Below the pieces are notes generated by a model that had not been told where the DNA came from, did no database searches, and saw nothing but the letters and a program-made list of their open reading frames with translations. Below are positions 14,216 to 61,125 of a DNA stretch of 64,000 bases, piece by piece (the stretch's first letter is position 1; each line of letters opens with the position of its first letter). The stretch is from an uncultured Gammaproteobacteria bacterium (GTDB taxonomy: Bacteria; Patescibacteriota; Microgenomatia; Woykebacterales; RBG-16-39-9b): positions 28,107 through 92,106 of the forward strand of contig CAYHXX010000002.1 of NCBI GenBank assembly GCA_964360785.1, written 5' to 3'. The position numbers were made by a program, and so were the translations under genes.

Positions 14216-14230
14216 CTTGTAAATAGTACC

Positions 14231-14268: not shown

Positions 14269-14290
14269 GTGGTGGGCTGCGGAACTTGAG

Positions 14291-14638: not shown

Positions 14639-14718
14639 GGAACAATCCCTCCCTGAATAGTCCCTTCCGAGACCGATTTCTTGACTTATAGTATTTTACC
14701 ACGAGGAAGGAAATCTTT

Positions 14719-15078: not shown

Positions 15079-15081
15079 TTT

Positions 15082-16097: not shown

Positions 16098-16338
16098 AGT
16101 TCGGGGACTTACTACCATATAAGTAGGAGTTAATATTCGTGGAAAGGTTACCGGGACCAGCTGTGGCTTTTGCAGCGATCTTGAGCAAAACATCAGCCGG
16201 AGATTCGCTTGTCTTTTTTCTTAAACCAGATTTTAAAAGCTCCCTGATTATTTCAGCCTGTGGTTTATCTTGTTTCTTGGAAAGAAGGTTAATCTCCCGA
16301 TCCAGAGTCTCGGTAAGATATATTTGTTTTCTTTTCAT
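16069..16338 (-). CDS. ribbon-helix-helix (CopG/VapB-like) antitoxin
   Basis: KQIYLTETLDREINLLSKKQDKPQAEIIRELL has an RHH beta-strand/helix pattern. Sits immediately upstream of, and overlaps, the PIN gene. Confidence 0.55.
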   Translation of the reverse strand: MKRKQIYLTETLDREINLLSKKQDKPQAEIIRELLKSGLRKKTSESPADVLLKIAAKATAGPGNLSTNINSYLYGSKSPNYGKRTLRRR

Positions 16339-16424: not shown

Positions 16425-18371
16425 TTACTTCTTTTCTTCGTCAACTACTTCACCTTCAACTGTTTTGTTGTCTTCTTTTTCCTTCGACGCGCCTTCGGCT
16501 TGCTCAGGACTACCGCCTTCACCGTCTGTTGGTGGGATTTCTTCTTGGACGCCGGCGCCTTCGGGGTTGGTTCCGGGTGCGTTTTCATACATGGCTGATC
16601 CGATTTTTTGCAGCGCAGCCCCGAGTTCGTCAGCGGCTTTCTTAATATCGTCCGCATTGTCCTTTGTTATCGCCTCTTTAGCAGTAGCGACTTTTTCCTC
16701 AACTTCTTTTTTGACGTCCTCGGCTACTTTGTCACCAGCATCTTTGAGAGATTTTTCGGCGGTATAGACCAGAGAATCAGCGATGTTGCGGGCTTCAATC
16801 AATTCTTTTTTCTTGGCATCTTCCTCGGCGTGTTTTTCTGCTTCCGCGGCCATGTTGGCAGCTTCTTCCTTGGAAAGACCTGTTGAGCCGGTAATGGTAA
16901 TTTTTTGTTCTTTGCCAGAGGCCTTATCCTTGGCGTGAACGTTGAGAATGCCATTAGCATCAATATCAAAGGTTACTTCGATCTGGGGGACGCCACGCGG
17001 TGCTGGTGGTACTCCATCGAGTATGAACCGACCAAGCGATTTGTTGTCAGTTGCCATTGGTCGCTCTCCTTGTAGAACATGGACCTCGACACTAGTCTGA
17101 TTATCCGCAGCCGTTGAGAAAGTTTCTGTCTTGGCAGTTGGAATAGTTGTATTGCGCGCGATCAATACAGTTGAGACTCCGCCAAGGGTTTCAACTCCAA
17201 GGGAGAGTGGGGTAACGTCCAAAAGAACGACATCTTTAACCTCCCCGGTAAGGACTGCCCCTTGAATCCCAGCGCCAATGGCAACAACCTCGTCTGGATT
17301 GATCCCTTTGTGGGGATCTTTGCCGAAAAACTTTTTGACTGCTTCTTGCACTGCTGGCATTCGGGTCATACCGCCAACCAAAACCACCTCATCTACCTTG
17401 GCCGCGTCAATTCCAGCGTCTTTAATAGCGGCTTTACAGGCATCAAAAGTTTTATCAATCAAACTTTGGACCAAACTTTCGAGTTTGGCTCGAGAAAGTT
17501 TTACCAGCAAATGTTTTGGTCCGGAAGCGTCAGCGGTGATGAAGGGAATGTTAACCTCAGTTTCCAGAGAACTGGAAAGCTCGATCTTAGCTTTTTCCGC
17601 ACTATCGCGCAGTCGCTGCATTGCTTGCTTATCGGCTGAGAGATCAACACTATTTTCTTTTTTAAATTCTTCTACCAGAAAATCAATAATTTTTTGGTCA
17701 AAATCATCTCCTCCCAGGTGGGTGTCGCCGGAAGTAGATTTGACTTCAAAAACACCTTCGCCCAGTTCCAAAATGGAAACGTCAAAAGTTCCACCACCAA
17801 GGTCATAGACCGCAATCGTGTGGCCTTGTGATTTTTCCAGACCATAAGCCAGAGCTGCTGCAGTTGGTTCATTAATAATTCTTTTGACATCAAGACCAGC
17901 GATCTCACCGGCCTGTTTTGTTGCTTGGCGCTGGGCATCGTCAAAGTAAGCCGGGACGGTAATCACGGCATCGGTAACTTTCTCACCCAAATAACTTTCG
18001 GCATCAGCTTTGATTTTTTGGAGAATTTGCGCGGAAATTTCTTGGGGTGTGAATTCCTTACCCTCAACTTCAACCACTGCCATATCATTTTTGCCACTCT
18101 TTACAGTGTAGGGAAGCCACTTCACATCGCGTTGCACAGTCTCGTCTTTAAACTTATGTCCCATCAATCTTTTTACTGAAAAAATTGTCGTTTTTGGGTT
18201 AACCACTGCTTGGCGCTTGGCCACCCGCCCAACCACTCTTTTGATCGGATCGACAACTGAAGGGATAATATTTTCACCCTCAGCCGAGTGGATTACTTTT
18301 GGCTGGCCCCCCTCAATGATAGCTACGGCGCTGTTTGTTGTTCCTAGATCGATACCAATAATTTTTGACAT
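16425..18371 (-). CDS. dnaK: molecular chaperone DnaK (Hsp70)
   Basis: [18 protein letters not shown], 648 aa. Confidence 0.95.
16431..16459. repeat. direct repeat copy 2 (native dnaK 3' end)
   Basis: See copy 1. Together the repeats bracket the RHH-PIN cassette, about 780 bp. Confidence 0.75.
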
Positions 18372-35459: not shown

Positions 35460-36362
35460 ATGACCGATATCCGCCAATGTCGTCTTTGGGCAAGCTTTAT
35501 GGAAGATCTGGGTTGGGGTGTTGAGAATATCCGCACTCGCGACAAGGACAACTTTGTTTACCTCAAAAAAATTCCTTTATTTGGTACCATCCTCAAAGCC
35601 CCGAGAATTTCTTTGCCGCTACCTTTTTCTGAGATTGAAGCTTTAGCTAAAGACAAAGGTGTCTTTTTTTCAAAAATTGAGCCAAAAACTTCTCTTCCGA
35701 ATTCCAAAGTCCTTTCCGAGCTCAAGGACTCTGGTTACGCTAGTGAGCGCTGGTCGCTCCATCCCACCAAAACAATTGTTCTGGATCTGCGTAAAAGTTC
35801 TGACGAGCTGCTAAAAAATATGGAAAAAGATACCCGCTACAGCATCCGAGCTTCACAAAGACGCGGAATCAGAGTAGTCAAAAGTAACGATCTCAACCGC
35901 TTTCTCAAACTCTACCGTGCTACTGCCAAACGCCAAGGTTTTTGGATCCCGGAAAAGGACTTAGGCTCCTTGTGGGACATCTTTTCCAACGAAGGCAAGG
36001 CTTTTATTCTGATTGCTGTTTGGAATCACACCGACATTGCCGGTTGTTTGATCCTGCATCATGAGAAAAGTGCTTACTATTATCACGCGGCTTCACTACG
36101 AGAATATAAAGAATTCTTTGCGCCATATTTATTAATTTGGGAAAGTATGAACCAAGCCAAAAAACTAGGGCTAAAAGAGCTCGATCTGGAAGGCATCTAC
36201 GATCATCGGTTTCCAGCCACCAACAAATGGAAGGGTTTTACTCATTTCAAAAAAGGTTTTCGCGGTGAAGAAGTCGAGTTGCTAGGTTCTTTTGTCAAAA
36301 ATTACAATCCAATTCTTTCGACATTTTATAAAGTTTCCAACTTCTCCCTGAATTTTAGGTAA
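35460..36362 (+). CDS. FemAB-family peptidyl/aminoacyl transferase (peptidoglycan cross-bridge formation)
   Basis: KDTRYSIRASQRRGI and the overall FemX-like pattern. Confidence 0.55.
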   Translation: MTDIRQCRLWASFMEDLGWGVENIRTRDKDNFVYLKKIPLFGTILKAPRISLPLPFSEIEALAKDKGVFFSKIEPKTSLPNSKVLSELKDSGYASERWSLHPTKTIVLDLRKSSDELLKNMEKDTRYSIRASQRRGIRVVKSNDLNRFLKLYRATAKRQGFWIPEKDLGSLWDIFSNEGKAFILIAVWNHTDIAGCLILHHEKSAYYYHAASLREYKEFFAPYLLIWESMNQAKKLGLKELDLEGIYDHRFPATNKWKGFTHFKKGFRGEEVELLGSFVKNYNPILSTFYKVSNFSLNFR

Positions 36363-36420
36363 AAGAAAGCCGCTAGTTCATGCCTGGCTGGCACAAACGT
36401 AGCGGCCTCCTCTCTCTTTT
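36361..36420. terminator. bidirectional intrinsic terminator between the FemAB-like gene and the GC-rich large gene (GCCGCTA...TAGCGGC)
   Basis: 7-bp stem at 36369-36406 with T-rich tracts on both strands. Confidence 0.45.
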
Positions 36421-36432
36421 CCTCCGATCTCT

Positions 36433-38766
36433 TTACTGCTTGATGACGACGATGGTCTCACCGCAGTTGGCGCAGGCCTTGGCAGTGAGAGCGTTCTTGT
36501 ACCCGCATCCGGCCGTGCAGTAGATGAAGTCCCTTGCAGGCTGAGCCGGGGCGGGGGATGTCGTCGGTACCGGAGCCGGCGTTGGTGCTGGCTCTGGCGC
36601 GGGCGCGGGGGCCGGAGTCGGCCTTCCCGTTACCCTCACCGACTTCGTCTTTGGCCCTGGGGCGGGTGCGCTAGCGGCGGCGGCCTTCCTTGCTGCTTCT
36701 ACCACCTCGGGGGGAAGCTCAGCAGCAACGGAACCATCTTCAGGCTCCACCACTGCCTCTTCCTTCGGCAGCTCGCAGCCGCACTCGTCGCAGCGCTTGC
36801 GACCAGGCTGCGCTGGTGTCTTGCAGTTCGGGCAGACCCTTTCCTGTGGCTCGACGATGGCGGCGGGTACGGGGACCGTTGCCAAAGTGCCACACTCGTC
36901 GCAGCGCTTGCGCTCCGGCGCGATCGGCCCGCCGTACTGCACACAGTCCGGGTTCGGGCAGACCTTACCGTCGCCATTGGCCCCAATGGCCTTCATCTGC
37001 TCGGCGACACCAGCCAGGGTGGCCACGTCCCCTAAGGTGGCTGGCTGGACCTCGTCCTGCTGCGGCCCAAAACCGAGATCCCACGACCCTTCGGACGCGA
37101 TCGCATCGATCTCCTTACTCCGACTCACGGTCTGCTCGACATTCGAGGCTTCCGCCACGAGCGTGCGGGCTCCGTTGATCAGAGTTCGTGATTCGACGAG
37201 CGGACTCCTTTGGGCATGAGCTACGCTCGGGTTGTCGAAGTTCTGCCGGTTGGCCACCAGGTTGTCGATCTTGCTCAAGACTGAGCGTCCGGGCGGTGTT
37301 TCGGCGAAGGGTCCGACCGCGTGCTGAGCGTCAGCAATGAACTTGTCGATCTGCTCAAGATTGGCGTCGATCTCCTCGACGGCCAACGAAGCCTCGTACA
37401 GCTCCTCTGCCCGACCAACCAGCTTGAAGGACCCGCCACGCTTCTCACGGGGTGCTGACCCCTTCAAACGCCTTAGCTCGACTTCAAGCTCGCTTGCCTC
37501 AGCAAGGAACCGCTGTGCGTAGCCGTTGTCCGGAAATGCGCCGACCGCCTCCTTGGCCGCACCGACAAAGCACGTCGTCGCCTCAAAGTCAACCTCGGCT
37601 CGGACATCGCGAGCGGCACTGACACTGAGCGTGTAGTTCCGCGCCGGTAGGTGTTGTTGGCGGATCTCGCTGAGTTTGTCCTGAGCCTTCTTGCCGACTT
37701 CACTGGGGTCCCATTTGGGGTCAGCGGCCCGCGCCTTCTCGACGACCTCCTTGATGTGCTCGACGACGCTGAGGATCTGCTGATTAGCGTTGTTCGTCGC
37801 ACAGCTGTCACACCCTTCGACCTGGTTTTCGCGGTCGATGTAGTAGGGCGGGCGGTCTTTCGGGATCGGTTTCAAGCACGGCTCGCCGCTGGGGAGTGTG
37901 TTCTGACACTCTTTCGTTTCGGTCGTCTGCACGGTCACTTCTGCTTCCCTTTCCTCGTGCGTTCGCACGACTACTGACTTGACGCTTGGACTGTGATGTA
38001 CTGCCATTTCTGGCTCCTCTTCTGTTGTCGCAACTGCGGTTGCTCCTCCTTTCGCAACCAAATCAGTCCAGTACTTACTTGCGATTCTGGTTATCTCGTC
38101 CGTCGAGAACTCACTGTTGCGTGTTTCCCAACCGTAAACAGAAGACTCAACCTCTGCCCCGTCCGGGAAATAAACGATCCTGCGGCACTCGCGTGCTATC
38201 TTGATCGTTCTAATCTGCTTTGGCCACGTGATACCCTCCACAGCGGGCAGTTCTGGCTTCTTACCAACTGTGTTTTGGAGAATAGTGATGTTTCGGTTCA
38301 TGAGCGCGACCAGAAACTCAATATCTCTCACGATGTTTCGAAGTTGGCGCTCCACCTCCCTGTTTGGGCCAGAATGTTTGATCTCAACTAGACCTACAAC
38401 CCAAGCGGTTTTGGCTTCGATACTGATGAGAATCCCGTCTGGGTTGTGAAATGCGAGTTTCGGATAGTCAGAGAAAAACGGGGAGCGTGTTCTCAGAAAT
38501 GCCAGAAAGTAATCAGCCACTACCTGCTCTTCAGCAGACATTTGCCTGCCTTCATAATCTGGCGCACTGAGTACAAGCTCTTGAAGAACTCTTCCTCGCT
38601 TATCTGAGATGGTTGGTTCCTGTGAATTATATGTAATTGTTCGGGTGCCTAGGTCATGAAGGTTCGCTGTTTGTAGCGCTCTTTTATCCGGTGTCAGATA
38701 GGGTCGAACCGGGGTGATATGCGCTACGACCTCAGAAACCCAGTGATCGACATCGCGAATACTCAT
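36433..38766 (-). CDS. G+C-rich foreign-looking protein of about 778 aa: N-terminal PD-(D/E)xK nuclease-like domain, long Ala/Glu-rich central region, Pro/Ala linker, three C-terminal zinc ribbons. Start taken at MSIRDVDHW.
   Basis: HNPDGILISIEAKTAWVVGLVEIKHS (PD...ExK). CPNPDCVQYGGPIAPERKRCDECG, CPNCKTPAQPGRKRCDECG, CTAGCGYKNALTAKACANCG. SD GGAAGGAGG lies 8 nt upstream of the ATG at 38764-38766. The ORF-track start 38874 is upstream in AT-rich DNA and unlikely. Confidence 0.55.
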   Translation of the reverse strand: MSIRDVDHWVSEVVAHITPVRPYLTPDKRALQTANLHDLGTRTITYNSQEPTISDKRGRVLQELVLSAPDYEGRQMSAEEQVVADYFLAFLRTRSPFFSDYPKLAFHNPDGILISIEAKTAWVVGLVEIKHSGPNREVERQLRNIVRDIEFLVALMNRNITILQNTVGKKPELPAVEGITWPKQIRTIKIARECRRIVYFPDGAEVESSVYGWETRNSEFSTDEITRIASKYWTDLVAKGGATAVATTEEEPEMAVHHSPSVKSVVVRTHEEREAEVTVQTTETKECQNTLPSGEPCLKPIPKDRPPYYIDRENQVEGCDSCATNNANQQILSVVEHIKEVVEKARAADPKWDPSEVGKKAQDKLSEIRQQHLPARNYTLSVSAARDVRAEVDFEATTCFVGAAKEAVGAFPDNGYAQRFLAEASELEVELRRLKGSAPREKRGGSFKLVGRAEELYEASLAVEEIDANLEQIDKFIADAQHAVGPFAETPPGRSVLSKIDNLVANRQNFDNPSVAHAQRSPLVESRTLINGARTLVAEASNVEQTVSRSKEIDAIASEGSWDLGFGPQQDEVQPATLGDVATLAGVAEQMKAIGANGDGKVCPNPDCVQYGGPIAPERKRCDECGTLATVPVPAAIVEPQERVCPNCKTPAQPGRKRCDECGCELPKEEAVVEPEDGSVAAELPPEVVEAARKAAAASAPAPGPKTKSVRVTGRPTPAPAPAPEPAPTPAPVPTTSPAPAQPARDFIYCTAGCGYKNALTAKACANCGETIVVIKQ

Positions 38767-38797
38767 TCGGATGCCTCCTTCCTCACTTATGAGGCCT

Positions 38798-38825
38798 ATT
38801 ATACACAAAAAGTTGTAAAAGTCAA
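38798..38825 (-). promoter_or_regulatory. sigma70-like promoter of the large GC-rich gene (TTGACT-16-TATAAT on the minus strand)
   Basis: Minus-strand -35 TTGACT at 38820-38825 and -10 TATAAT at 38798-38803. AT-rich, unlike the ORF. Confidence 0.5.
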
Positions 38826-38857
38826 TCCTATAGCAGTTGTCGTGTGATTCTGGGCAT

Positions 38858-38879
38858 AAAAAAACTCCATCCAATGGAG
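38858..38879 (-). terminator. intrinsic terminator downstream of the small zinc-ribbon gene (CTCCAT-TGG-ATGGAG plus TTTTTTT on the minus strand)
   Basis: Hairpin followed by a 7-T run on the minus strand. A second upstream hairpin GGGAGACAG...CTGTCTCCC at 38903-38941. Confidence 0.5.
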
Positions 38880-39039
38880 TTAATTACTTTAAAGATATAG
38901 GTGGGAGACAGTTAGCGCGAGGCTAAACCGATCTGTCTCCCCTGGCGTCCTTCCTGTCTCGGTAAACAGGCACATGAGCTTACGTCATGACAAATCTCCT
39001 GGCCACAGTCTTGTGGCTAACCGCTCACCGTGATGGAAG

Positions 39040-39443
39040 CTACTTGCGCTTCCCCCCGTGAGCCATCTCCTGGTCGTGGCTGCGGCGTTCGGATTGCCGG
39101 GCACGCCATCGCTCCTTCTTGGCCATCTTCCGCACCTTGCGGTTGGCGGCCTCGATGCGGTCGCTGCTGGACTGCTCCGACAGTTCCACGATGAGCTCCT
39201 GGGCCCTGACGAACTTGCCGTTCGTCTTGGCTGTGACCGCCGCGAAGAAGAGTTTCTTCGCCACCGATCCGAGCTCACGCGGGTTGAACCGCCTGAGACT
39301 GCTCTCGACCTGAGAACAGAGGCTCCGGCAACGGCGGCACGTGCTCACGTTGCGGTCCTCGGCCTCGAGGTCTACAACGAACCCCGTATCGCACGAGCGG
39401 CACAGAGTTTCCACTTCAGCCTTGCCGAAAATCGTAACCATTT
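39040..39443 (-). CDS. G+C-rich small zinc-ribbon protein with basic C-terminal tail (about 133 aa; start at MVTIFGKAEV)
   Basis: CRSCD...CRRCRSLC zinc-ribbon-like spacing. Lys/Arg-rich C-terminus (RKVRKMAKKERWRARQSERR). GC-rich third codon positions. Confidence 0.45.
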
Positions 39444-39644
39444 CGTGTCCCCTTTCACAGGAACAACTCACACTTTAGGACGGGGTGAGTAACCGCTTTG
39501 GCTTGAAGCCAAAAAGCCATTCCAAAGGAAACCTTTGGAACAGCTTTATAGCCTCAACTTACCTTCACAAATTTGGCTCTTAAGTTTCGGGGAAGTTTGT
39601 ATTCACCTCCTTTTGATAGATATCCCGTAATTTCTTACGAGCCA

Positions 39645-39709
39645 AGTTTGAAAAGATAAAGGTTTAGGGCGGGTGGGAGGATACTTTGCATTGCTTTCTC
39701 CTCCCACCC
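39645..39709 (-). terminator. intrinsic terminator (11-bp stem GGGTGGGAGGA/TCCTCCCACCC) downstream of the 50-aa ORF on the minus strand
   Basis: Long GC stem at 39671-39709 followed on the minus strand by a T-rich tract. Confidence 0.4.
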
Positions 39710-39745
39710 ATGTGCCCCGCATGTTGTCGTCGCCGGCGTACCTGG

Positions 39746-39898
39746 TTAGCGCTTCTGAGCGGCCAGGGCCCGACAGGTCTGGGTGATCGCGTCGCCGTTG
39801 CCGTACACCCGTGTGGCAACACCACCCGGGAGAACGATCATGCGCGACGGGCCGGTGTTGAAGCTCTTGTATGATACCTTCTGACCAGAACGTGACAT
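39746..39898 (-). CDS. G+C-rich small ORF (about 50 aa, MSRSGQKVSYKSFNTGPSRMIVLPGGVATRVYGNGDAITQTCRALAAQKR); below the ORF-track length cutoff
   Basis: Consensus SD: AGGAGG lies about 8 nt upstream of the ATG. Followed by a terminator. No family recognised. Confidence 0.3.
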   Translation of the reverse strand: MSRSGQKVSYKSFNTGPSRMIVLPGGVATRVYGNGDAITQTCRALAAQKR

Positions 39899-40088
39899 GT
39901 TGGCGGGACCTCCTGTAAAAGCTGAGTCACCTCATTTTGGTGTCTCAAACCTCACTACTAGATAGGGAGATTTCAGATACCAAGACCTCTCTCAAAAAGC
40001 CTGATGCACCACTCAATCTTGATAAAAAGTATAGCACACTTTAGTCCTTTTGTCAAGTACTATGGGTTGTTCTCTGGGTTAGTGGTGA

Positions 40089-43010
40089 TTATTTTTTAGT
40101 TAGGGAAAACGGGCATATAGAATTGTAAGGGCAATAGTTACAGGCAGGTAAGCGGCCGAAGTATTTCGGGTTAGCAGGAAAATTATCGTTTTGTAAATTC
40201 TCTTGAATGTTTTGGGCAACGGTGATAACTTCTTCCTCAGTTTTTTTGATCTCTTCGAGTTTTGGCTGGTAACCGCCTTCAAAACCACTTTCCAGGTCGG
40301 AAATACCAACAAACTCGGGGACAATCCCATAGTTTTTGTAGTAAGCGAGTGTATAAATTTTCAGTTGGACGCTGTCTTTGGCATTTTTTTCTAGCTCTTC
40401 AGCTGTGCGATTTTCTGTGGATTTATAATCAATGATCCTTACTTTTTTGTTTTTTTTATCCTCATCAACTCGATCAAATCTTCCTTTAACCAAAACTTCC
40501 ACACCAGAGATTTTTAACCCGAAACGAAACTCTTTCTCAATATAAGTTGGGAGAATCTTGGAACCTTTCTCGCGCTGCCAAAAAGATTTGAGGACTGCTT
40601 TGGCTTGGATCAACCTTCTTTCCTCGTGTTCAGCGGTGAGGAAACCTTCGTTTATCCAAGTGTTTTCCAAAACTTCGGTGATCTGCGATAGTTTTGGAGT
40701 TTTACCAGCCATTTTACTTTGCCAAAAATCTGCCACGGCGGCGTGCAAGGCAAAACCATAAACAATGGTGTGGTGACGAAGTATCGGTAGGCGCAATATG
40801 TGCGCATAGCGGTATTTGTAGGCACAAGTTTCATAATCATCAATCGAAGATTGGGAAAGAGAAATAATTTTTTTGATACGTATCGGACTTTTGGTTTTTT
40901 CTTTTGCGAAATTGAATTGTTCGATTTTTTCCAGAGCACTCTTTTTTACAGTAACTTGAGTCGCTACGGGTTTATCAAGTGCTTCGAGAACAAAGGGAGA
41001 AACTTTCTTGAGTCTTTTGCCTCCAGCATCTTTGTGCCAAGTGTAGTAAAGCTTGTCCTTGGCCCGGGTACTACCAACATAAAACAACCGCCGCTCCTCC
41101 TGTATATGAAAATCCCCTTCCGGCAGCTCTTCTTTGATCAGCTGCTCGGGGAGCGGGATACTCTCGCCCCTTTCTCTCGAAGGGAAACGGTCTGCCGTCA
41201 AACTGACCATAAAGACAGTGGCGAATTCTAAGCCTTTGGCTGCGTGCACCGTCAGTACGGAAACTGCGTCAAGATCGGGGTCAAAATCAGCGGCGGCCGG
41301 GTCGTCCCCAACTTGCTGCATCGTGATAAGGAAATCGACAAACACTTGCACCGACTCGTTGCGAGCGAGATCAATAAACTCCCGGATCTTGTCAAAAAAC
41401 TTAGCTATGTTTTGGATTTTTAGCTGCGCCTCAACGGTATTTTCCCGTTCCAACTTTTTTAGATATTCGGTCTTTTCCAAAAATTTATAAAGTACTCGTC
41501 CCACATTTTCTTTGCGAGAAAGCGAAAGCAGCTCTTCTTGATCGTTGATTATGTTTTCCACGATCGCACGGCCTTCCGGACTTACTTCAACTTCATCTAG
41601 GACACCTAGATTTTGAAAAACGTAATGCAGATTTTTGTTGCGACGTCGGGCTAAGTCCATACAAGCAATGCAGTCAGGCAGAGGGAGTTGGTAGATTTCT
41701 GAAGTTGCCAAATCGTAAAGACTAAGGCTGTCATCAAAATTTGACAGGCTTTTCAAAAAAGAGATTAATAAACTGATTTCTGGCTGGTTGTACAATCCAG
41801 AGACACCGGAAAATTTAAACGGGATTCCTTTGATATTTAGCGATCTCAAGAAAGGCTCTGCCTGAGAATTTGCTCTCACCAGTATCGCTATGTTCTTAAA
41901 ACTATTAGTTTTGTTTTTTGTAAGTTTTTCTATTTGCCCGGCTACAAAATCAGCTTCCTGGGAAAGAGTTTCAAAAGAAACTTCCTTTGGAGACTCTCCT
42001 GGGGATTCACGAGTCGAAACTAATTTCTTATTAATTTTATTGCGCACTTCTAGCCGATCTGGGTCATTAAAGCGGATCAACCGATAGCTCCTGTCAAGTA
42101 AGTTTTGGTTTGAACGATAATTTTTGGTCAGGACAATTTGCGCTGCTTTTTTGTAGTCAATCTTGAATTTCAAAATATTGGAAATTGCTGCCCCCCGAAA
42201 CTTGTAAATACTTTGATCATCATCTCCCACCACACAAATATTTTTATGAGAGTTGGCCAGCAATTTTACTAGCTCATTCTGGGCATAATTTGTGTCTTGG
42301 TACTCATCGACCAGAATATATTTAAACTTGTTTTGATACTCCTTCAAGATTTGTGGCTGATCTCTGAAAAGTTTTAGAGTGAGATAAACTTGATCGCCAT
42401 AGTCCACTTTTCCGGCGGAGAGCTTGAGGTCCTCATATTTGGTGTAAAAGGAAGCTAGTTCGAACTGTTTCTCGTATTCTTCTTTATCTTGAGATTTCTT
42501 CAGGCCTTTAGCAACTTCCAAGTAATCTTCGGGACTGACATCCTCATCTTTACAACGGCTGATGAGGGCGAGAATACCTTCAATAAACTTTGTTGGATTC
42601 GACAGGGGTCGGTAATGTCTCAGGTCGAAAGCAAAAAGGTTTTGCTGAACAAAAAGAATCTGTTGGGGTTTAGTCAAAACTTGAAAATCCGTCGGCATAC
42701 CCAAATCTAGCGCTTCTTCTCTCAAGATTCGATCTCCAAAAGCATGGAAGGTTGAGATCCAAGTATCAACATAGCCATAGGGAACAAGGATATCGACCCG
42801 TTCTTCCATCTCCGCAGCTGCCTTCTCAGTGAAAGTTAGTGCCAGAATTTCTGAAGGTTTTGCTAGTTTTTTCTCAATGATATAAGCAATTCGTCGACTG
42901 ATAACGGTAGTCTTACCAGTCCCGGCTCCAGCAATTATCAACAAGGGTCCAGCTGTATTGGAAACTGCTTTTGCTTGATCTGGGTTCAGTCCTTTTAAAA
43001 TTTCGCTCAT
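40089..43010 (-). CDS. AddA-like helicase-nuclease: UvrD-family helicase fused to a C-terminal PD-(D/E)xK (RecB/Cas4-like) nuclease with a Cys cluster
   Basis: GAGTGKTTV, DEYQDTN, VGDDDQSIYKFRGA, TVHAAKGLEF. C-terminus has GRFDRVD...IIDYKS and CNYCPYNSIC. Confidence 0.8.
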   Translation of the reverse strand: MSEILKGLNPDQAKAVSNTAGPLLIIAGAGTGKTTVISRRIAYIIEKKLAKPSEILALTFTEKAAAEMEERVDILVPYGYVDTWISTFHAFGDRILREEALDLGMPTDFQVLTKPQQILFVQQNLFAFDLRHYRPLSNPTKFIEGILALISRCKDEDVSPEDYLEVAKGLKKSQDKEEYEKQFELASFYTKYEDLKLSAGKVDYGDQVYLTLKLFRDQPQILKEYQNKFKYILVDEYQDTNYAQNELVKLLANSHKNICVVGDDDQSIYKFRGAAISNILKFKIDYKKAAQIVLTKNYRSNQNLLDRSYRLIRFNDPDRLEVRNKINKKLVSTRESPGESPKEVSFETLSQEADFVAGQIEKLTKNKTNSFKNIAILVRANSQAEPFLRSLNIKGIPFKFSGVSGLYNQPEISLLISFLKSLSNFDDSLSLYDLATSEIYQLPLPDCIACMDLARRRNKNLHYVFQNLGVLDEVEVSPEGRAIVENIINDQEELLSLSRKENVGRVLYKFLEKTEYLKKLERENTVEAQLKIQNIAKFFDKIREFIDLARNESVQVFVDFLITMQQVGDDPAAADFDPDLDAVSVLTVHAAKGLEFATVFMVSLTADRFPSRERGESIPLPEQLIKEELPEGDFHIQEERRLFYVGSTRAKDKLYYTWHKDAGGKRLKKVSPFVLEALDKPVATQVTVKKSALEKIEQFNFAKEKTKSPIRIKKIISLSQSSIDDYETCAYKYRYAHILRLPILRHHTIVYGFALHAAVADFWQSKMAGKTPKLSQITEVLENTWINEGFLTAEHEERRLIQAKAVLKSFWQREKGSKILPTYIEKEFRFGLKISGVEVLVKGRFDRVDEDKKNKKVRIIDYKSTENRTAEELEKNAKDSVQLKIYTLAYYKNYGIVPEFVGISDLESGFEGGYQPKLEEIKKTEEEVITVAQNIQENLQNDNFPANPKYFGRLPACNYCPYNSICPFSLTKK

Positions 43011-53140: not shown

Positions 53141-53874
53141 ATTAGTAGGTAGATCTTGGCTTTTTTCTGAAGTTCGTCGTACCAAGACTGAAATTTCTCG
53201 TTCAATTTCTCGTTCTGCAATTGGTCTTTGACCGCGTTTCGATCTTTGATATCAACTCCCAAGGAAGAATTGTCCTTGTTGTTAGCAATATACTCATCGA
53301 TTTCTTTGTCCTCAACTTTGATTTTGTCTTTCAGGAGTTTTTCGACGAGTAGTTGGATCCTGATTTGGTTTTTGAATTCTGTTTCTGAAATACCTCTTGA
53401 TTCCAAGGCTTGCTTAAGCTGCTCTTTACCACCTAGTTGTTTTTCAATTTCCCCGGTCTTCTTATCGAGATCTTCTTGGGAGAGCACAATTCCGTTCTTG
53501 TTGGCTTCTTGACTGATGAGTTTGTCTCTGACTATTTGATTCAAGATTTCTTTGTTATCCTTGGCTTTGAGGTTTTGGTAGTATTCAACAGTTGTTATAG
53601 GTTGGTTGTTTACCACGGCTGCCACAAACCAGTTTTTCTTAAAAAAGAGGAATGCACCCAAAGCGACGACTACCAAAGTGATAGCTAGATAACGAGTATA
53701 AAGTGTGCGGTTGTTGGAAATGTTCTTACGAATTGCAGAGTAGACTGCTTTTGGCGAAAATCTCGCCTCTTTGGCCTTGTTAGTTTTCTTCGCTACAGGC
53801 GAAGCTTTTGTAGTGGCTTTCTTTGTTTTGCTTTTAGTAGCTTCTGACGTGGTTTCTTTCTTTTTAGTTGCCAT
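53137..53874 (-). CDS. SurA-N/PrsA-like periplasmic chaperone-like protein (no PPIase domain); Lys-rich N-terminus plus TM
   Basis: Architecture only: basic tail, TM, then helical domain resembling a SurA N-terminal domain. Confidence 0.35.
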   Translation of the reverse strand: MATKKKETTSEATKSKTKKATTKASPVAKKTNKAKEARFSPKAVYSAIRKNISNNRTLYTRYLAITLVVVALGAFLFFKKNWFVAAVVNNQPITTVEYYQNLKAKDNKEILNQIVRDKLISQEANKNGIVLSQEDLDKKTGEIEKQLGGKEQLKQALESRGISETEFKNQIRIQLLVEKLLKDKIKVEDKEIDEYIANNKDNSSLGVDIKDRNAVKDQLQNEKLNEKFQSWYDELQKKAKIYLLI

Positions 53875-54312
53875 AGGATGAGATTTATTCTAAAACATCC
53901 TTTAGCAATTTTTCAAGGGGTACTTTTGAAAATGAAAAACGACAGCAAGCTTGTAGGCTAACGCTGTCGTTTGTTTCTAGTCGTCCGGGTCTCCATTCTG
54001 CCGTGTCAGAATTTCGCGGAGACCCGGTATAGGCGAACGAAACCAGTCTTCTGATCCATCTCCATCTGTTGCAACACCTTTTGAGTCAAGCTCGAAGGTG
54101 GAACAGACTTCATCGACGGACCAGTCGCTCTGTCGCTGCCTCGCTCCTCATTAAGGATTAACACGGTACATCCTGGGTGCGGACTACAATATAACATAAA
54201 ATTAAGAGTTTGTCAATACTATGGGTTACAGTTGTTTACTTTAGTTACGAAAAAAGGGCCTCATCAGAAGCCCTTTTTCTTGACACATGCAACTTGCTAC
54301 TTGTAACTTAGT

Positions 54313-55950
<1,638 letters not shown>

Positions 55951-56030
55951 CTAAAATATCGATCGTAATACTAATTCTTTGTTTCTCAGAAACAACTTTC
56001 TGATCGATATAATTTACCTCCTTTAAATTA

Positions 56031-56324
56031 TTAATCTACTATTGCCATTACATCTTCAAACTTAACCAATTTGAATTCCTCACCATCAAGTTTGAGCTCA
56101 TCGCCACCCCATTTTTTGTAAATTACAGTGTCCCCAACACTAAACTCCGCTTTCTCTTCGTGTTCGGGGTGTTTGATCGGGGAACCAACGGCAATAACCT
56201 TACCTTTGGCTGGTCGTTCTTGAGCATTGTCTGGTAAATAGATCCCGGAAGCGGTCTTCTCAACTGCTTCTTCTGGTTTTATTAACGCATAACCAGCAAG
56301 CGGCTTTAATGTAACTTTTGACAT
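56031..56324 (-). CDS. groS: co-chaperonin GroES
   Basis: 97 aa, LKPLAGYALIKP...VGDTVIYKKWGG. Confidence 0.9.
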   Translation of the reverse strand: MSKVTLKPLAGYALIKPEEAVEKTASGIYLPDNAQERPAKGKVIAVGSPIKHPEHEEKAEFSVGDTVIYKKWGGDELKLDGEEFKLVKFEDVMAIVD

Positions 56325-56378
56325 AAACCTCCTAAAATTAAACTCTTTAAATTGTTAGTGTGGGCAAAATCTATAAAC

Positions 56379-56403
56379 AGCACTCTCAACTCTTTTGTGC
56401 TAA
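56379..56403 (-). promoter_or_regulatory. CIRCE-like operator upstream of groES (minus strand TTAGCAC-N11-GAGTGCT)
   Basis: Inverted repeat about 60 nt upstream of the groES start. TTGACA lies upstream on the minus strand. Confidence 0.45.
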
Positions 56404-56447
56404 CGTAGTTTATAGATTCCTGTTTTTGTTGTCAAGGGATACTACTT

Positions 56448-57803
56448 TTAGTTTGCGGTTACCGATGATATCAGGCTGTATTTTTTAAGCACTGCGGTTA
56501 GCTTTTTGTCCAAATCCTTAAGCTGTCCTGAAGCCGATCCACCTGTTTCTACCTCCAAAACTACATTTTTGAATTCGGTTACGATATTGTCATTTAAACC
56601 TTGGTCGTACGTATCACTGTGCAAATACCAACTTCTTGCACTCGGAGCTTGCACAAGGTAGGCCGCCAAGTAGGGGTTGGTTGTCTGCTCTTTGGCCATA
56701 TCGACTCGGGGGAAGGCTCTACCGAAAATATTTTGCTCACTCTCATACTTAAAAACTTCCCGCAAAACTTCCTTTGAAGTCAGGTAGGCGGCTAATTTCC
56801 AACTAGCTTGTTTTTGATTACTTTTTTCCGAAACTCCAATGGCCCAGTAGCTTCCCCAGGTAACAGTTTCCGAATCTGGAAGCTGTGGGGTCGGGGCAAC
56901 ACCAAAATCAAGTTTTAGGTTTTCTTTTTTCAGTGTTTCCAGCAGGGTGTGGATCTTCTCTGCTGGCAAAATAATCATGGCTGTCTTACCCGTAGAGAAA
57001 GCAGCGATACTATTTGGCAAGGTGTTATCCCAGATCTTGTCCTCTTTCGAGAATTTCAGATAGCCATCAACGGCGTCACTGACAAGATTTGTTCCGCGTG
57101 AGCCTTTGTTATCAAGGATATTTAGTTTCCCATTGTTGACAAATGCAACACCGTTTTGCAGCAAAAAGAGCCCAATTATTTCCGAAAAATTCTCAACGTT
57201 GTTTACTGTACCCAAGGCAATTGCTGAGTTGAGGATACGTTGTTTGTCCCGGATAGTGAGGGCTGGACCATAAACTTGACGGAGTTGGGCCCAAGTTGTC
57301 GGTGCCTCTTTGAAGTTGGACGAAGCAAATATTGATTTATTATAAAGCAGGGCAAGCCCATCAATCTCCAAGGGAAATCCTCTGTAAGAACTTCCGAGTT
57401 TCATATCGGTTTTTGTGATTGGGTAAAAAGTTTTTTCGTATTCGATAGCACTCATAACACTCTCTGGGAGCGAGGCTAAGCTTTTGCCCAACTCAGGACC
57501 CCAACCGCTGTGCCACCAAAAAAGGTCTGGGGTAGTATCTTTGTTCACAAGGTCAGCTTTCAAAGTTGGAAAATAATTTTCCTTTTGCCGTTGTTCGTAT
57601 TCAATCGTAATCTCGGGATTTTTTTCTTGAAAGTCTTTTTTTATCGTATTAAAAACTACTGGGTCCCAAAAACCAACTACTTTGAGGAAAATTGGTTTGG
57701 GCTCACTTTCTCTTTTGAATACAAGGGTGAGGATAAAGTAGGTAACTACAAGTGTAATGAGGAATAAAACTATGTAGAGTATTTTTGTCTTGGCAGTAGA
57801 CAT
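56448..57803 (-). CDS. extracellular solute-binding protein (ABC transporter SBP family 1-like)
   Basis: N-terminal TM/signal anchor. Size and composition typical of sugar-binding SBPs. No permease adjacent. Confidence 0.45.
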   Translation of the reverse strand: MSTAKTKILYIVLFLITLVVTYFILTLVFKRESEPKPIFLKVVGFWDPVVFNTIKKDFQEKNPEITIEYEQRQKENYFPTLKADLVNKDTTPDLFWWHSGWGPELGKSLASLPESVMSAIEYEKTFYPITKTDMKLGSSYRGFPLEIDGLALLYNKSIFASSNFKEAPTTWAQLRQVYGPALTIRDKQRILNSAIALGTVNNVENFSEIIGLFLLQNGVAFVNNGKLNILDNKGSRGTNLVSDAVDGYLKFSKEDKIWDNTLPNSIAAFSTGKTAMIILPAEKIHTLLETLKKENLKLDFGVAPTPQLPDSETVTWGSYWAIGVSEKSNQKQASWKLAAYLTSKEVLREVFKYESEQNIFGRAFPRVDMAKEQTTNPYLAAYLVQAPSARSWYLHSDTYDQGLNDNIVTEFKNVVLEVETGGSASGQLKDLDKKLTAVLKKYSLISSVTAN

Positions 57804-57814
57804 GAAATTATTTT

Positions 57815-58687
57815 TTACTTTATTCTGTTTAAGTACTCTTTCAAGGAAGCTGCTATATCTTCTCGTTTCAAACCAAACTCAATATTGGCCTCGATAAATC
57901 CAAGTTTGTCTCCAATGTCATAATAGCGTGCGTTTTCAACTAGTACCGTGTAGACTGGCTCGTTTTTAATTAGTTCTGAGATCGCGTCGGCCAGCCAGAT
58001 TTCACCGGATTTACCAGGTTGCAAGTTGTCTAGATATTTCCAGATCGAGGGTGTAAAAATGTAGGCTCCATGAGTAGCAATGTCGCTTGGCGCCTCATCG
58101 GGGGAGGGTTTTTCAACTATTTTCTCTATTTGGTAGATGTTGCCTTCGATATGCTTTACTTGTGCAATTCCGTATTTACTCAGAGCCGTTTGGTCCGTAA
58201 TTTTAACCCCACTGATCATACTTACTTGATACTTGTCGTAAGCATCGATTAGCTGCTTCAAACGCGGGGGTTCAGAGTAAATAAACTCATCTCCCCAGAC
58301 AACTGCAAAAGGCTCATCTTCAACCAAGGGTTTTGCTGAGATAACCGGGGAAGCGTTACCATAGGGTCCTTTTTGACGAACGTAAATAAAATTCGCCATC
58401 GTCGCAATATTTTTAATCTCTTGTGCTTTTTCAGTTTTTCCAGTTTCGATCAGGAAATCTTCGAAATCTTTACTTCGATCAAAATGGTCCTCAATCGCTC
58501 TTTTGCTGCCCCCCGTAACGATGATGATATCCTTGACTCCTGAGGCTACAATTTCTTCGACGACATACTGGATCACAGGTTTATCCACAATTGGTAACAT
58601 TTCCTTGGGCATGGCTTTGGTTGCCGGTAAAAACCTTGTTCCGAGGCCAGCGGCAGGGATGATTGCTTTGGTGATTTTATTGCTCAT
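57815..58687 (-). CDS. galU: UTP--glucose-1-phosphate uridylyltransferase
   Basis: KAIIPAAGLGTRFLPATKAMPKEMLPIVDKPVIQY. Confidence 0.8.
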   Translation of the reverse strand: MSNKITKAIIPAAGLGTRFLPATKAMPKEMLPIVDKPVIQYVVEEIVASGVKDIIIVTGGSKRAIEDHFDRSKDFEDFLIETGKTEKAQEIKNIATMANFIYVRQKGPYGNASPVISAKPLVEDEPFAVVWGDEFIYSEPPRLKQLIDAYDKYQVSMISGVKITDQTALSKYGIAQVKHIEGNIYQIEKIVEKPSPDEAPSDIATHGAYIFTPSIWKYLDNLQPGKSGEIWLADAISELIKNEPVYTVLVENARYYDIGDKLGFIEANIEFGLKREDIAASLKEYLNRIK

Positions 58688-58749
58688 TTTGACGGTTTTT
58701 AATTGTAGTTATGCTATCATAGCAGGAGTAGACAGACAATTGAAGGGAG

Positions 58750-59328
58750 GTGGAAAAAATAATGATTAAAAATCCTTCACAACGAGTCGGAGTTTTTATA
58801 GATGTCCAAAATCTTTATTACTCGGCCAAAAATTTATATAACGCAAAAGTAAATTTCGGAAAAATACTGGAAAAAGCAGTCGCTGGTCGACAGCTTATCC
58901 GCGCTTTTGCCTACGTAATCAACGCAGATATCCCTGAGCAGCAATCTTTTTTCGAAGCCCTAGCCAAAGCTGGTTTTGAGGTAAAAAGTAAAGATATTCA
59001 GCTATTTCCTGGTGGGGTCAAAAAAGGCGATTGGGATGTCGGTATTGTCATTGATATGATCCGAATGGGAGCAAAACTTGATGTCATGGTGTTGGTTTCT
59101 GGAGATGGGGATTACGTACCAGCTCTTGAGTACTTGCGCAATCAGGGACATTTGATCGAAGTAATTGCTTTTGGAAAAAGTACTAGTGCAAAATTGATTC
59201 TTGAAACAGACGAGTTTATTGACCTTGATCAGGACAGCGCTCACTATCTGATTGCCAATCGAAGGCCGCCTTACGCCAAAAGAGGTTATACAAAACCTCC
59301 CAGCAACGAGTCTTTGTCCGAATTATAG
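58750..59328 (+). CDS. NYN/LabA-like domain protein
   Basis: VGVFIDVQNLYYSA N-terminus and LVSGDGDY motif. Confidence 0.6.
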   Translation: MEKIMIKNPSQRVGVFIDVQNLYYSAKNLYNAKVNFGKILEKAVAGRQLIRAFAYVINADIPEQQSFFEALAKAGFEVKSKDIQLFPGGVKKGDWDVGIVIDMIRMGAKLDVMVLVSGDGDYVPALEYLRNQGHLIEVIAFGKSTSAKLILETDEFIDLDQDSAHYLIANRRPPYAKRGYTKPPSNESLSEL

Positions 59329-59426
59329 AAAGTTCCAAGGAAAAGCAACCAAAACCGCTAGTCTTCTTAGACGCAAGTCTAAAAGAGACTTATAGTGTTG
59401 TTCGGTTTTCTTTGGGTACTCTGAAA

Positions 59427-59686
59427 TGAAAAAGCCCGCCCGTACGACCAACCAGCAGGTTGTTTTGTGTCGTACGGAACGGGCTCTTGTGACTTCCGGT
59501 TCGTGTTCAGCTCGTCAGGGTGATGCCTGAGTTGCTGAGTTCAGTGCCGGCGCCGCGCACGCGAGATCAGCCGGACGCGCCGTCGATCTCCAGGTCGAAC
59601 AAGCTTTCGAAAATCACCTGGGACAACCGTCTCATGAAAGGTATCCTTTCCTCGCTACTGAACCAGTTCACTCGAACCAGTCGATA
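59427..59686 (-). ncRNA. candidate structured sRNA (about 260 nt), unassigned, with its own near-consensus promoter and intrinsic terminator
   Basis: Minus-strand TTGACA(59716-59721)-17-TAGAAT(59693-59698). G+C-rich body with no ORF of 60 aa or more. Terminator hairpin at 59433-59485 plus U-run. Confidence 0.45.
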
Positions 59687-59745
59687 AAAAATATTCTAGC
59701 ATATCTTAGCAAATCTGTCAACTATGGGTCTATTGGGATTTTTGT

Positions 59746-60069
59746 TTGGAAATAAAAACGCGGTCAGTGGAAAGCTCATCCGGTACAGCCGATACACAGC
59801 CCGAGCCGGATAATTCTGTTGCCATCCACTAACCGCGGCCGACACTATTCGACTGATTGCTGGTCGCAGGAGCACCTACTGGTATGCAGGTGTGTCGGCT
59901 CTGCCCTCGACCTAAACGTTCGTGTAGCTGTTACGGCTACAGGCGGTGCCCATTTGCCGTACCCTCCTTAGACATGCGCCCTTCTTCCAAACTTAGGTGG
60001 AAGCACCTAGTCGCAGATATCTAGCTTCGCCTCTGTATCTCCCATACGAGCGCTTGCCTACCTGCCACA
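59746..60069 (-). ncRNA. candidate structured RNA (about 320 nt) with RNase P RNA-like motifs (possible reduced rnpB)
   Basis: Minus-strand promoter TTGAAG(60100-60105)-17-TATAAT(60077-60082). RNA contains AAGGAGGGUACGGCAAAUGGGCACCGC...GUAACAG and ACAGAAUUAUCCGGCUCGGGCU, resembling RNase P CR-II/III and CR-V. CR-I was not found. Confidence 0.35.
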
Positions 60070-60141
60070 ATTTCTAATTATATTCCTTTGTCAAGTCTTC
60101 TTCAAACCTAACTGTGTCCAAAATATGCTAAGATATCTGGG

Positions 60142-61125
60142 ATGAAAATTCTTGGTATTGAAACTTCTTGCGATGAAACCGCCGCGGCAATAGTCGAAGA
60201 TGGTACAAAAATTCTATCCAACACCGTCTCCTCTTCTCTACCCTACCACGCCGAAACTGGCGGAATAATTCCGGAAAAAGCCGCGCGCGAACAACTTAAA
60301 GCTATGGTTCCAGTACTGGAAAAAACTTTTAAAGCCGCTTCTCTCTCCCCTGCCTCTATCGATGCAATTGCTGTTACTAGCGGCCCTGGACTATTTGGTT
60401 CTCTTATTTTGGGGGTTGAGTCGGCTAAATCTCTCGCCTTTGCATTGGATAAACCAATTGTTCCAATCAATCATTTAGTCGGACATATCTATGCAAATTG
60501 GCTTGAAAATCCTGACCCACCGACTTTCCCAAATCTTACTTTGATTGTTTCTGGCGGACATTCGGAGCTAGTTTTGATGAGCGATCACGGAAATTTTGAA
60601 TGGCTCGGCGGGACTCGTGACGACGCTGCTGGAGAGGCTTTTGACAAAACGGCCCGCGTTCTGGGACTTACTTATCCTGGCGGCCCGGCAATACAGAAAG
60701 CAGCTGGGAGAGTAAAAAAACTAGACAACTTTCTTCCCCGTCCACTTTCAACCAGTTCTGATTTTGATTTTTCTTTTTCTGGGCTTAAAACTGCGGTAGT
60801 AAACCTAGTTGGCGAGAAGAAGTTAACAGATGATGAGATTTCCCAATACGCGGCTGAGATTCAGGAAGCAATTGTTGATTCTTTATTGATCAAAACTATA
60901 AAAGCAGCTGAGAAATATCAGGTTAAAGAGTTGCTGCTAGCAGGCGGGGTTGCAGCCAACACTCGTCTGGTTGAAAAAACAAAAGAAAAATTCAAAGGTG
61001 TTGTCCACTCTCCCTCTCCCAAGCTTTGCATTGATAATGGAGCAATGATCGCCGCCGCGGCTTTCTTTAACTACAAACCAATTCCATGGCAAGAAATCCT
61101 CGCCGACTCCGGTCTTTTCTTTTAA
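60142..61125 (+). CDS. tsaD: tRNA N6-adenosine threonylcarbamoyltransferase TsaD
   Basis: MKILGIETSCDETAAAIV, Kae1/YgjD family. Confidence 0.9.
   Translation: MKILGIETSCDETAAAIVEDGTKILSNTVSSSLPYHAETGGIIPEKAAREQLKAMVPVLEKTFKAASLSPASIDAIAVTSGPGLFGSLILGVESAKSLAFALDKPIVPINHLVGHIYANWLENPDPPTFPNLTLIVSGGHSELVLMSDHGNFEWLGGTRDDAAGEAFDKTARVLGLTYPGGPAIQKAAGRVKKLDNFLPRPLSTSSDFDFSFSGLKTAVVNLVGEKKLTDDEISQYAAEIQEAIVDSLLIKTIKAAEKYQVKELLLAGGVAANTRLVEKTKEKFKGVVHSPSPKLCIDNGAMIAAAAFFNYKPIPWQEILADSGLFF

Follow-up and report, generated by a model that had tools for sequence, protein, structure and literature searches.

A probably resident, clade-specific locus of groundwater Patescibacteria combines conserved native control elements with GC-rich coding sequences

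We analyzed a window of 64,000 nucleotides (nt), meaning the whole stretch of DNA to which all positions below refer, and a GC-rich island on its minus strand (40066 to 36361) that contains the gene of a clade-specific protein of 777 amino acids (aa) (36433–38766, ATG at 38766). GC-rich open reading frames (ORFs) stand here beside AT-rich control signals, and a sequence-only reading had taken this mosaic as a trace of transfer from a high-GC donor with recruited regulatory regions, or of a mobile element delivering ORF-sized cargo. Our results favor another explanation, to which we assign a probability of about 0.65: the island is a fast-evolving locus that is resident in, and specific to, one clade; its native control and RNA elements are conserved, and a GC-ending codon usage is maintained in its genes. 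The stretch 38767–38905, just upstream of the 777-aa gene, is best explained as a native intergenic control region within a clade-specific, vertically inherited locus of Patescibacteria, a group of ultra-small bacteria (Curtissbacteria-related lineage, Hainich groundwater).

Conservation of the locus and its control signals

An ENA contig from the 0.1 µm size fraction of Hainich groundwater matches the window at 99.95%. An identical 777-aa protein is encoded on a 169-kb NCBI contig, and two ENA variants are each one residue apart. Judged by the neighboring helicase-nuclease (hereafter helicase), the nearest genomes are Patescibacteria metagenome-assembled genomes (MAGs) with 69–72% identity, followed by Curtissbacteria with 57–60%. 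A full HMMER scan of 1.84 billion representative proteins with the 777-aa protein gave 21 matches; the first 15 cover its N- or middle domains, and the other 6 cover only the zinc-ribbon/Pro-Ala tail. We fetched the genomic contexts of homologues (L003, L082–L087, L089, and L090), and all 10 contexts examined showed the same locus in related Patescibacteria, with the shared gene order RmuC–helicase–island–FemAB–G5/3D and the FemAB gene convergent with the 777-aa gene. In L086 and L087, the N-domain and the remainder of the protein are encoded by separate ORFs. GC-rich DNA was present at the island site in every clade member examined, including all four closest GTDB genomes (L002–L005), and Curtissbacteria have no GC-rich DNA there. 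A word-indexed protein search with the 777-aa protein returned only the query itself, and no homologue of its gene was found in INPHARED phages, PLSDB plasmids (tblastn), or an IMG/VR scan. In the contexts examined, the comparison with donor-like homologues proposed by the sequence-only reading found no partner outside this locus.

The 777-aa gene is preceded by a promoter, P2 (TTGACT-16-TATAAT; 38798–38825, minus strand), which agrees with the consensus at 11 of 12 positions. Its −35 (TTGACT, 38825–38820) and −10 (TATAAT, 38803–38798) hexamers are separated by a 16-nt spacer, a CTATAGG motif (38826–38832, minus strand) lies directly upstream, and P2 sits 31 nt before the ATG; transcription is predicted to start near 38791. 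The Shine-Dalgarno (SD) sequence GGAAGGAGG (38774–38782, minus strand) lies 7 nt before the ATG at 38766. Upstream of P2, the preceding unit, that of orf133, ends in an intrinsic terminator (38856–38881, minus strand) with an 8-bp stem, a 3-nt loop, and seven T residues. Its stem-loop AACTCCATTGGATGGAGTT (38881–38863) stands 3′ of a gene and directly before the T-run, as in intrinsic terminators generally, and the CTCCA/TGGAG stem and T-run recur in L003 and L085 with other loops. The promoter, SD, and terminator pointed out in the sequence-only reading are thus present on the minus strand.

In the single sequence, the match of P2 is not beyond chance, because we counted 4 promoter-like sites in 4.5 kb versus 2.2 ± 1.4 in shuffled sequences. 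P2 was accepted as real on account of its conservation in nine orthologous loci. Their alignment shows no variation in TTGAC, TAT.AT, the start codon, or the purines of the SD, and every orthologue is preceded by CTATAG(G)TTGAC(T), 16–17 nt, TATAAT, ~20 nt, GGAAGGAGG, ~7 nt, and ATG. P2 therefore has the near-consensus hexamers, the spacer within 16–18 nt, and the orthologous conservation of a sigma-70-type promoter. The same style, CCCATAGT or CTATAGG followed by TTGAC, is also found upstream of an ordinary gene at 1073, and CCCATAGT-TTGAC precedes two other small units, at 54218 and 59721. These occurrences indicate that the promoter style is native, and the control signals, described earlier as native-looking, are indeed of the host type. 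The exact octamer CCCATAGT occurs on the minus strand at 1073–1080, 7106–7113, 40059–40066, 54218–54225, and 59721–59728; a TTGAC −35 element lies just downstream at the four sites whose following sequence was read (1073, 40059, 54218, and 59721). CCCATAGT may be an upstream promoter element or operator typical of the lineage.

To compare the conservation of coding and non-coding parts, we took the best local nucleotide alignments of the window elements to six orthologous islands. The promoter at the beginning of the island (P1) showed 84–94% identity over 34–43 of 46 nt in six of six islands, and an SD-bearing RNA element showed 85–95% identity over ~80 of 84 nt, likewise in all six. The region of the first terminator (77–98% identity, 47–66 of 66 nt) and P2 with the 5′ untranslated region (UTR; 84–90% identity, 55–63 of 69 nt) were each aligned in five of six islands. 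From the GC-rich coding sequences, only short fragments could be aligned. In most of the six islands, control and RNA elements were 81–98% identical and aligned over nearly their whole length. Spacer is normally less well kept than coding sequence, and this island shows the reverse. At the protein level, pairwise identity was 68–79% for the helicase and 63–82% for FemAB versus 26–48% for the N-domain and 19–54% for the middle domain of the 777-aa protein.

Base composition, synonymous sites, and mRNA folding

The sequence-only reading had set GC-rich ORFs against AT-rich intergenic DNA, and per-feature GC values upheld this contrast in part. The spacer 38767–38880 has a GC content of 0.40, whereas the whole 777-aa ORF has 0.58, with a GC content at third codon positions (GC3) of 0.65; the medians of host genes in the window are 0.42 and 0.39, respectively. 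However, other non-coding stretches of the island are not AT-rich (38881–39039, GC 0.50; 36363–36432, GC 0.54), and both contain GC-rich hairpins. The accompanying claim that GC-richness begins at the start codon did not hold, since the rise is gradual. Codons 1–250 have a GC content of 0.48–0.52 and a GC3 of 0.40–0.62, the part from about codon 300 has 0.60–0.71 and 0.62–0.84, and the GC content climbs along the gene from 0.49 through 0.61 to 0.67. Across orthologues, GC3 was 0.44–0.58 in the N-domain, 0.55–0.83 in the middle domain, and 0.49–0.74 in the C-terminal part, and the step from a lower N-domain to a higher remainder was seen in all of them, including those with the gene split in two.

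The GC3 outliers in the window are the 777-aa gene, an ORF pair at 39040–39492, a 115-aa ORF at 14291–14638 (0.74), and an ORF at 63701–64000 (0.82). In the GC-rich part of the 777-aa gene, C/(C+T) at two-fold sites was 0.78 versus 0.40 in host genes, G/(A+G) at two-fold sites was 0.76 versus 0.32, and GC3 at four-fold sites was 0.66 versus 0.38. Among codons pooled over the GC-rich units, the fractions of AAG (0.88 versus 0.28 in host genes), CAG (0.88 versus 0.35), and ATC (0.89 versus 0.36) were similarly raised. The GC shift thus touches all synonymous classes, and amino acid composition alone was rejected as its cause, since the shift extends to two-fold and four-fold synonymous sites alike. 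High expression was also rejected as the cause of the high GC3, since DnaK (16425–18371) has a GC3 of 0.42, in the ordinary host range.

We then compared synonymous usage at positions where orthologues have the identical amino acid. The fraction of such positions with the same codon was 0.38–0.44 for the 777-aa gene versus 0.33–0.37 expected at saturation, and 0.44–0.49 for the helicase versus 0.40–0.42 expected. At the same sites, GC3 was 0.46–0.68 in the 777-aa gene versus 0.32–0.42 in the helicase. Synonymous sites are approximately saturated, yet GC3 is high in every lineage. Therefore, the GC-ending usage is maintained and is not a decaying trace of transfer; a recent transfer that has yet to ameliorate is incompatible with these values.

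The transcripts of the GC-rich genes are also predicted to fold more stably than those of host genes. Folding z-scores over whole coding sequences reached −2.7 (orf133), −2.4 (115-aa gene), and −1.8 (middle of the 777-aa gene), versus +0.5 and +0.4 for two host genes. In 150-nt windows compared with dinucleotide shuffles, the mean z-score was −1.21 for GC-rich genes (n = 17) and −0.16 for host genes (n = 80; p = 3.6e-4). This difference was replicated in seven orthologous genomes, in which the mean z-score was −1.15 for the 777-aa gene (n = 80) and −0.37 for the helicase (n = 38; p = 5e-4).

Island elements, the 777-aa protein, and other GC-rich units

On the minus strand, the island runs from P1 through a leader, a 50-aa ORF, a hairpin, the RNA element, a terminator-like hairpin, orf133, a bulged hairpin, the terminator, and P2 to the 777-aa gene and its terminator. 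P1 (CCCATAGT-AC-TTGACA-17-TATACT, with TG before the −10; 40028–40066, hexamers 40056–40028) begins directly 3′ of the helicase stop codon and is followed by a conserved leader of ~120 nt. The small GC-rich ORF of 50 aa (39746–39898) has its own SD; an ORF of 45–50 aa with variable sequence occupies its place in L003, L084, and L085. The hairpin between this ORF and the RNA element shows compensatory changes between loci. At the other end, the 777-aa gene is followed by an intrinsic terminator (36361–36406, minus strand), read from the sequence as GCCGCTA...TAGCGGC and then TTTCTTTT, convergent with the FemAB gene.

The conserved, structured RNA element of ~85 nt (39566–39649, minus strand) scores 96 bits in the window with a covariance model, which detected the element at every clade locus but gave no match in Curtissbacteria. 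Its outer stem, TTGGCYC/GRGCCAA, shows one CG-to-UA covariation. The structure further includes a GNRA hairpin and a stem of GGG/CCC closing a loop in which AAGGAGGTGAA is invariant; this is a perfect SD, but no start codon follows it. A peptide encoded across this RNA was rejected because indels are not multiples of three and neither a start codon nor a reading frame is conserved. Apart from chance microRNA matches, Rfam gave no match in 38700–40200 even at E ≤ 10; nothing relevant was found in the whole window at gathering thresholds or in permissive scans of 38700–40200, 53800–60200, 59400–60120, and 53880–54240. A metagenome scan gave three further loci with the element (L091, 7736–7819; L093, 169–246; L092, 516–601), of which two were informative. 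In L091, helicase and FemAB are 235 nt apart, with nothing but a promoter, an RNA of ~170 nt, and a terminator between them, that is, a stand-alone small RNA (sRNA) gene, and in L093, the element is followed by a single Cys-rich ORF of 66 aa. Since these distant relatives have the RNA only or the RNA with one ORF, the GC-rich genes appear to have accreted around a resident sRNA gene.

Between the RNA element and orf133 lies a terminator-like inverted repeat (39503–39557, minus strand) whose stems vary compensatorily between loci. orf133 (39040–39441, minus strand; GC 0.63) encodes a protein with a Cys-rich N-terminus and a basic C-tail; its likely start is the ATG at 39441 with the SD AAAGGGGA, while the longest ORF begins at a GTG at 39471. 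Two antisense ORFs of 144 and 143 aa overlap here (39058–39492 on the plus strand and 39040–39471 on the minus strand), and the ENA gene call is on the plus strand. The minus-strand frame has 41% identity to L082, whereas the plus-strand ORF has no match; the latter is probably spurious, a call on the wrong strand, as gene callers can make in such GC-rich stretches. The 3′ UTR of orf133 forms a bulged hairpin (38903–38942, minus strand; GGGAGACAG-ATCGGT-TTAGC-loop-GCTAA-CTGTCTCCC), which has 83–93% identity over 42–48 of 56 nt in L003, L082, L083, and L085 and was aligned only as short fragments in L084 and L090. Its ATCGG bulge is invariant, and the loop sequence differs in L003 and L085. Some related islands carry extra GC-rich genes of 324–352 aa (L004, 14714–15772, minus strand; L084, 5837–6850; L087, 267–1304; L089, 1–975), one of which has a DHH-like H..DDD motif as read from its sequence.

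The 777-aa protein appears to combine a nuclease-like N-domain of the PD-(D/E)XK type (aa 1–240; 38047–38766, minus strand), a Cys knuckle followed by a helical rod with nine long helices (about aa 290–570), and zinc ribbons with Pro/Ala-rich linkers between them (aa 600–777). R21, Q32, G58, D110, E128, K130, Q141, W213, and E224 are invariant in the N-domain; D110, E128, and K130, which make up the D...(D/E)xK motif of the family, and also Q141 are so in 12 sequences. In an AlphaFold2 (AF2) model (predicted local distance difference test, 83; predicted template-modeling score, 0.79), D110 lies just before strand 111–117, E128 and K130 lie at the end of strand 120–129, and Q141 is on helix 136–165. 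This modeled placement suggests the PD-(D/E)XK arrangement, with an invariant D...ExK...Q on a predicted beta-beta-alpha core. A Foldseek search gave no significant match; its lists consisted mostly of PD-(D/E)XK nucleases, and the best non-significant matches were bunyavirus/arenavirus cap-snatching endonucleases, BsmI, Nt.BspD6I, BbvCI, RecB-like, and UL24-like proteins. Unlike known members of this superfamily, the N-domain has no match among Pfam, PADLOC, and PHROG profiles, including defense-system and phage profiles, and it is followed in the same protein by the Cys knuckle, the helical rod, and double zinc ribbons. Residues 290–570 had only generic helical fold matches. The Pfam double zinc ribbon (DZR) was matched with E = 4.4e-5, below its gathering score (24 versus 27.3 bits), and a PDB sequence-profile search matched only the zinc-ribbon region, to ArnA-like chains. 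Such a combination of nuclease-like domain, rod, and zinc ribbons is typical of nucleic-acid-targeting conflict systems.

A second GC-rich unit (14222–14702, minus strand) consists of a promoter region, an SD, the 115-aa membrane-protein ORF (14291–14638), and a hairpin terminator. This cassette, which the sequence-only reading had cited as showing the same pattern, does so: its ORF has a GC content of 0.57 and a GC3 of 0.74, with its own SD and hairpin terminator. The word-indexed protein search found one relative of the 115-aa protein, in L088, with 84% identity, and a nonsynonymous-to-synonymous rate ratio (dN/dS) of 0.12 shows that the ORF is a real gene. The segment shared with L088 (14222–14702) includes the AT-rich promoter region and the terminator. 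The AT-rich genes flanking the cassette (13634–14215 and 14719–16193, both on the minus strand; GC 0.33–0.39) are absent from L088; the AT-rich neighbors are the variable part around this cassette.

A third GC-rich ORF (63701–64000, minus strand; GC 0.61, GC3 0.82) runs off the end of the window and is followed by a terminator; no homologues of this fragment were found in the word-indexed protein search. Two short GC-rich units on the minus strand (59440–59730 and 53950–54225) have the CCCATAGT-TTGAC promoter style, strong terminators, and only ORFs of 22 and ~35 aa, and are candidate sRNA or small-protein genes without an Rfam match. A GC-rich non-coding unit of ~330 nt (59760–60100, minus strand), with a TTGACA...TATAAT promoter, a terminal T-run, and no Rfam match even in the permissive scan, is probably a structured RNA. 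An Rfam tRNA of 110 nt (10187–10296, plus strand; 51 bits) was not called by ARAGORN and has an apparent insertion of ~38 nt after the anticodon region; it clusters with tRNA-Trp(CCA), tRNA-Pro(GGG), and tRNA-Ala(CGC).

Origin of the GC mosaic and comparison with known systems

If the locus is resident, the mosaic would reflect two regimes side by side and hold no record of a recent import. Purifying selection would keep promoters, SDs, and terminators AT-rich and accessible, and a locus- or gene-specific force would keep the coding parts GC-rich. Our preferred candidate for this force is mRNA-level selection for stable, structured transcripts and/or for an atypical GC-ending codon usage that would gate translation. 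The main alternative is GC-biased gene conversion at a recombination-prone, diversifying locus. The genes may have been acquired anciently, at the base of the clade, beside the resident sRNA gene. A more specific proposal, which we hold only tentatively, is that the lineage actively maintains a second, GC-ending codon usage and unusually structured mRNAs in a few lineage-specific, hypervariable genes under conserved, strong native promoters, anchored on the SD-displaying sRNA.

Several points weigh against the resident-locus interpretation. The maintaining force has several candidates: biased gene conversion, recurrent replacement from an unsampled pool, and selection acting on codon usage or mRNA. 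A purely local mutational force would predict an equal GC3 in the N-domain, where it is lower. The folding excess may partly be a by-product, since shuffles destroy codon periodicity and the Ala, Gly, Pro, and Arg codon families are mutually complementary. The N-domain is putatively assigned to the nuclease fold from motifs and from fold matches that are not significant. Domain identities are partly out of step with those of flanking genes (79% for the helicase and 32% for the N-domain between the window and L083; 70% and 48% with L084), which would be compatible with exchange or replacement of alleles. At the island site, L004 and L005 have different GC-rich genes. Between the window and L088, the same-codon fraction was 0.62 versus 0.44 expected for the 115-aa gene and 0.47 versus 0.39 for DnaK; because the cassette is less diverged synonymously than DnaK, its exchange between lineages is possible. 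This low divergence was not accepted alone as proof of recent transfer, given that strong codon bias lowers the saturation level.

The last three of these observations are also what recurrent allelic replacement would produce, in which GC-rich coding parts would be re-imported by homologous recombination from an unsampled GC-rich pool (phage, plasmid, or other strains), with the AT-rich promoter and RNA elements as anchors; the conserved non-coding anchors that flank hypervariable coding sequences fit it as well. However, none of the 10 contexts examined showed a copy outside the locus, searches of the phage, plasmid, and IMG/VR collections were negative, no copy appeared elsewhere among the matches from 1.84 billion proteins, and synonymous saturation is as advanced in the 777-aa gene as in its flanking genes. 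We therefore regard allelic replacement as unlikely. The recent transfer from a high-GC donor put forward in the sequence-only reading, with native AT-rich signals recruited or remodeled afterward, would account for the atypical GC content and codon usage and for genes that have no relatives outside the clade and are missing from relatives outside it. On the other hand, all clade members examined have the island at this site, with flanking genes only 63–82% identical, promoter and gene are co-conserved in nine loci, synonymous sites are saturated with a stationary GC3, and no donor homologues were found. Among the hallmarks of a genomic island, the locus has atypical base composition and codon usage; an empty site in close relatives, mobility genes, repeats or a tRNA target, donor homologues, and amelioration were not found. 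Minimal island sites occur only in distant relatives, and the nearest tRNA genes lie at ~10 kb and ~52 kb of the window. Recent transfer is thus very unlikely.

A further rival, close to the mobile element proposed in that reading, is a cassette system resembling integrons or phage morons, by which GC-rich units of ORF size would be inserted. It has in its favor that each unit is an autonomous promoter-ORF-terminator module of deviating composition and that the 115-aa unit has different neighbors in L088. No flanking direct repeats or att-like sites were found at the island, however, and no repeat family in the main island; gene order is conserved, and the island ORFs had no family match in Pfam, PADLOC, or PHROGs except the below-threshold double zinc ribbon. 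With neither repeats nor family matches, no integrase or attC-like site is evident. No integrase was identified among the scanned proteins or the genes called in flanking DNA, the flanking DNA examined yielded no phage genes, and neither attC nor IntI, as in integron cassettes, is evident where each unit has its own promoter. The conserved unit at 14.3 kb contains an AT-rich promoter and a terminator rather than the ORF alone, and it is the neighbors that vary, not the cassette. We consider such a system highly improbable. An assembly or binning chimera, with GC-rich foreign DNA joined into a low-GC contig, had to be considered since the source is a MAG; its probability is close to nil, as the 777-aa gene and identical island junctions are present in three assemblies of the population and the same layout was seen in more than 12 independent metagenomes. 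These independent assemblies rule out an assembly chimera.

Island predictors and most annotators read atypical GC content and codon usage as recent horizontal gene transfer. Positional orthology and synonymous saturation at this locus indicate that such a signature can be a stable, maintained trait of resident genes. If the more specific proposal of a second, maintained codon usage is true, composition would be a regulatory or RNA-stability device or the mark of a recombination hotspot instead of a trace of foreign origin, and the equation of atypical GC content with recent transfer would fail systematically for such genes. Two further products of the locus are a small new protein family (nuclease-like domain with zinc ribbons) and an RNA element that, with its exposed SD, is a candidate new motif.

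Horizontally acquired islands of atypical composition reportedly follow the amelioration model of Lawrence and Ochman. The present island resembles them in its local GC and codon anomaly, in genes that have no relatives elsewhere and are absent outside the clade. It differs from them in its one syntenic site clade-wide (flanks 63–82% identical), its saturated sites with stationary GC3, its co-conserved promoters, and its lack of mobility genes, repeats, and donors. Phage morons are autonomous promoter-ORF-terminator modules of deviating GC content. As in morons, each GC-rich ORF has a sigma-70-type promoter, an intrinsic terminator, and a composition unlike that of its neighbors; unlike morons, the units lie outside a prophage, have the ordinary promoter style of the host, and appear to be stable residents rather than insertions. 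Bacterial ORFans are said to be typically richer in AT than the core genome (Daubin and Ochman, 2004). The island genes share with ORFans that they are lineage-restricted and fast-evolving and encode short or poorly structured proteins, but the GC-rich genes have a GC3 of 0.64–0.82 versus 0.39, the reverse of the usual rule that genes without relatives are AT-rich.

STAB-SD is an mRNA stabilizer of B. thuringiensis cryIIIA. A ribosome-binding mRNA stabilizer of B. subtilis hbs is also described (PMC5737220). The RNA element is similar to both in having a perfect SD, AAGGAGGTGA, upstream of a coding region and without a following start codon, and by analogy it may stabilize mRNA in the manner of STAB-SD or bind ribosomes. 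It differs in that its SD stands in the loop of a conserved three-stem structure and that it forms a free-standing sRNA gene in L091. GC-biased gene conversion in bacteria (PMC4450053) would raise GC3 at a frequently recombining locus without a GC-rich donor. In contrast to it, the GC3 shift of the island is very large (+0.25 to +0.4), affects only a few genes, and varies from one domain to another within a single gene. The locus offers a concrete case in which mRNA or codon selection could be told apart from biased gene conversion, in a bacterium that is streamlined and uncultivated.

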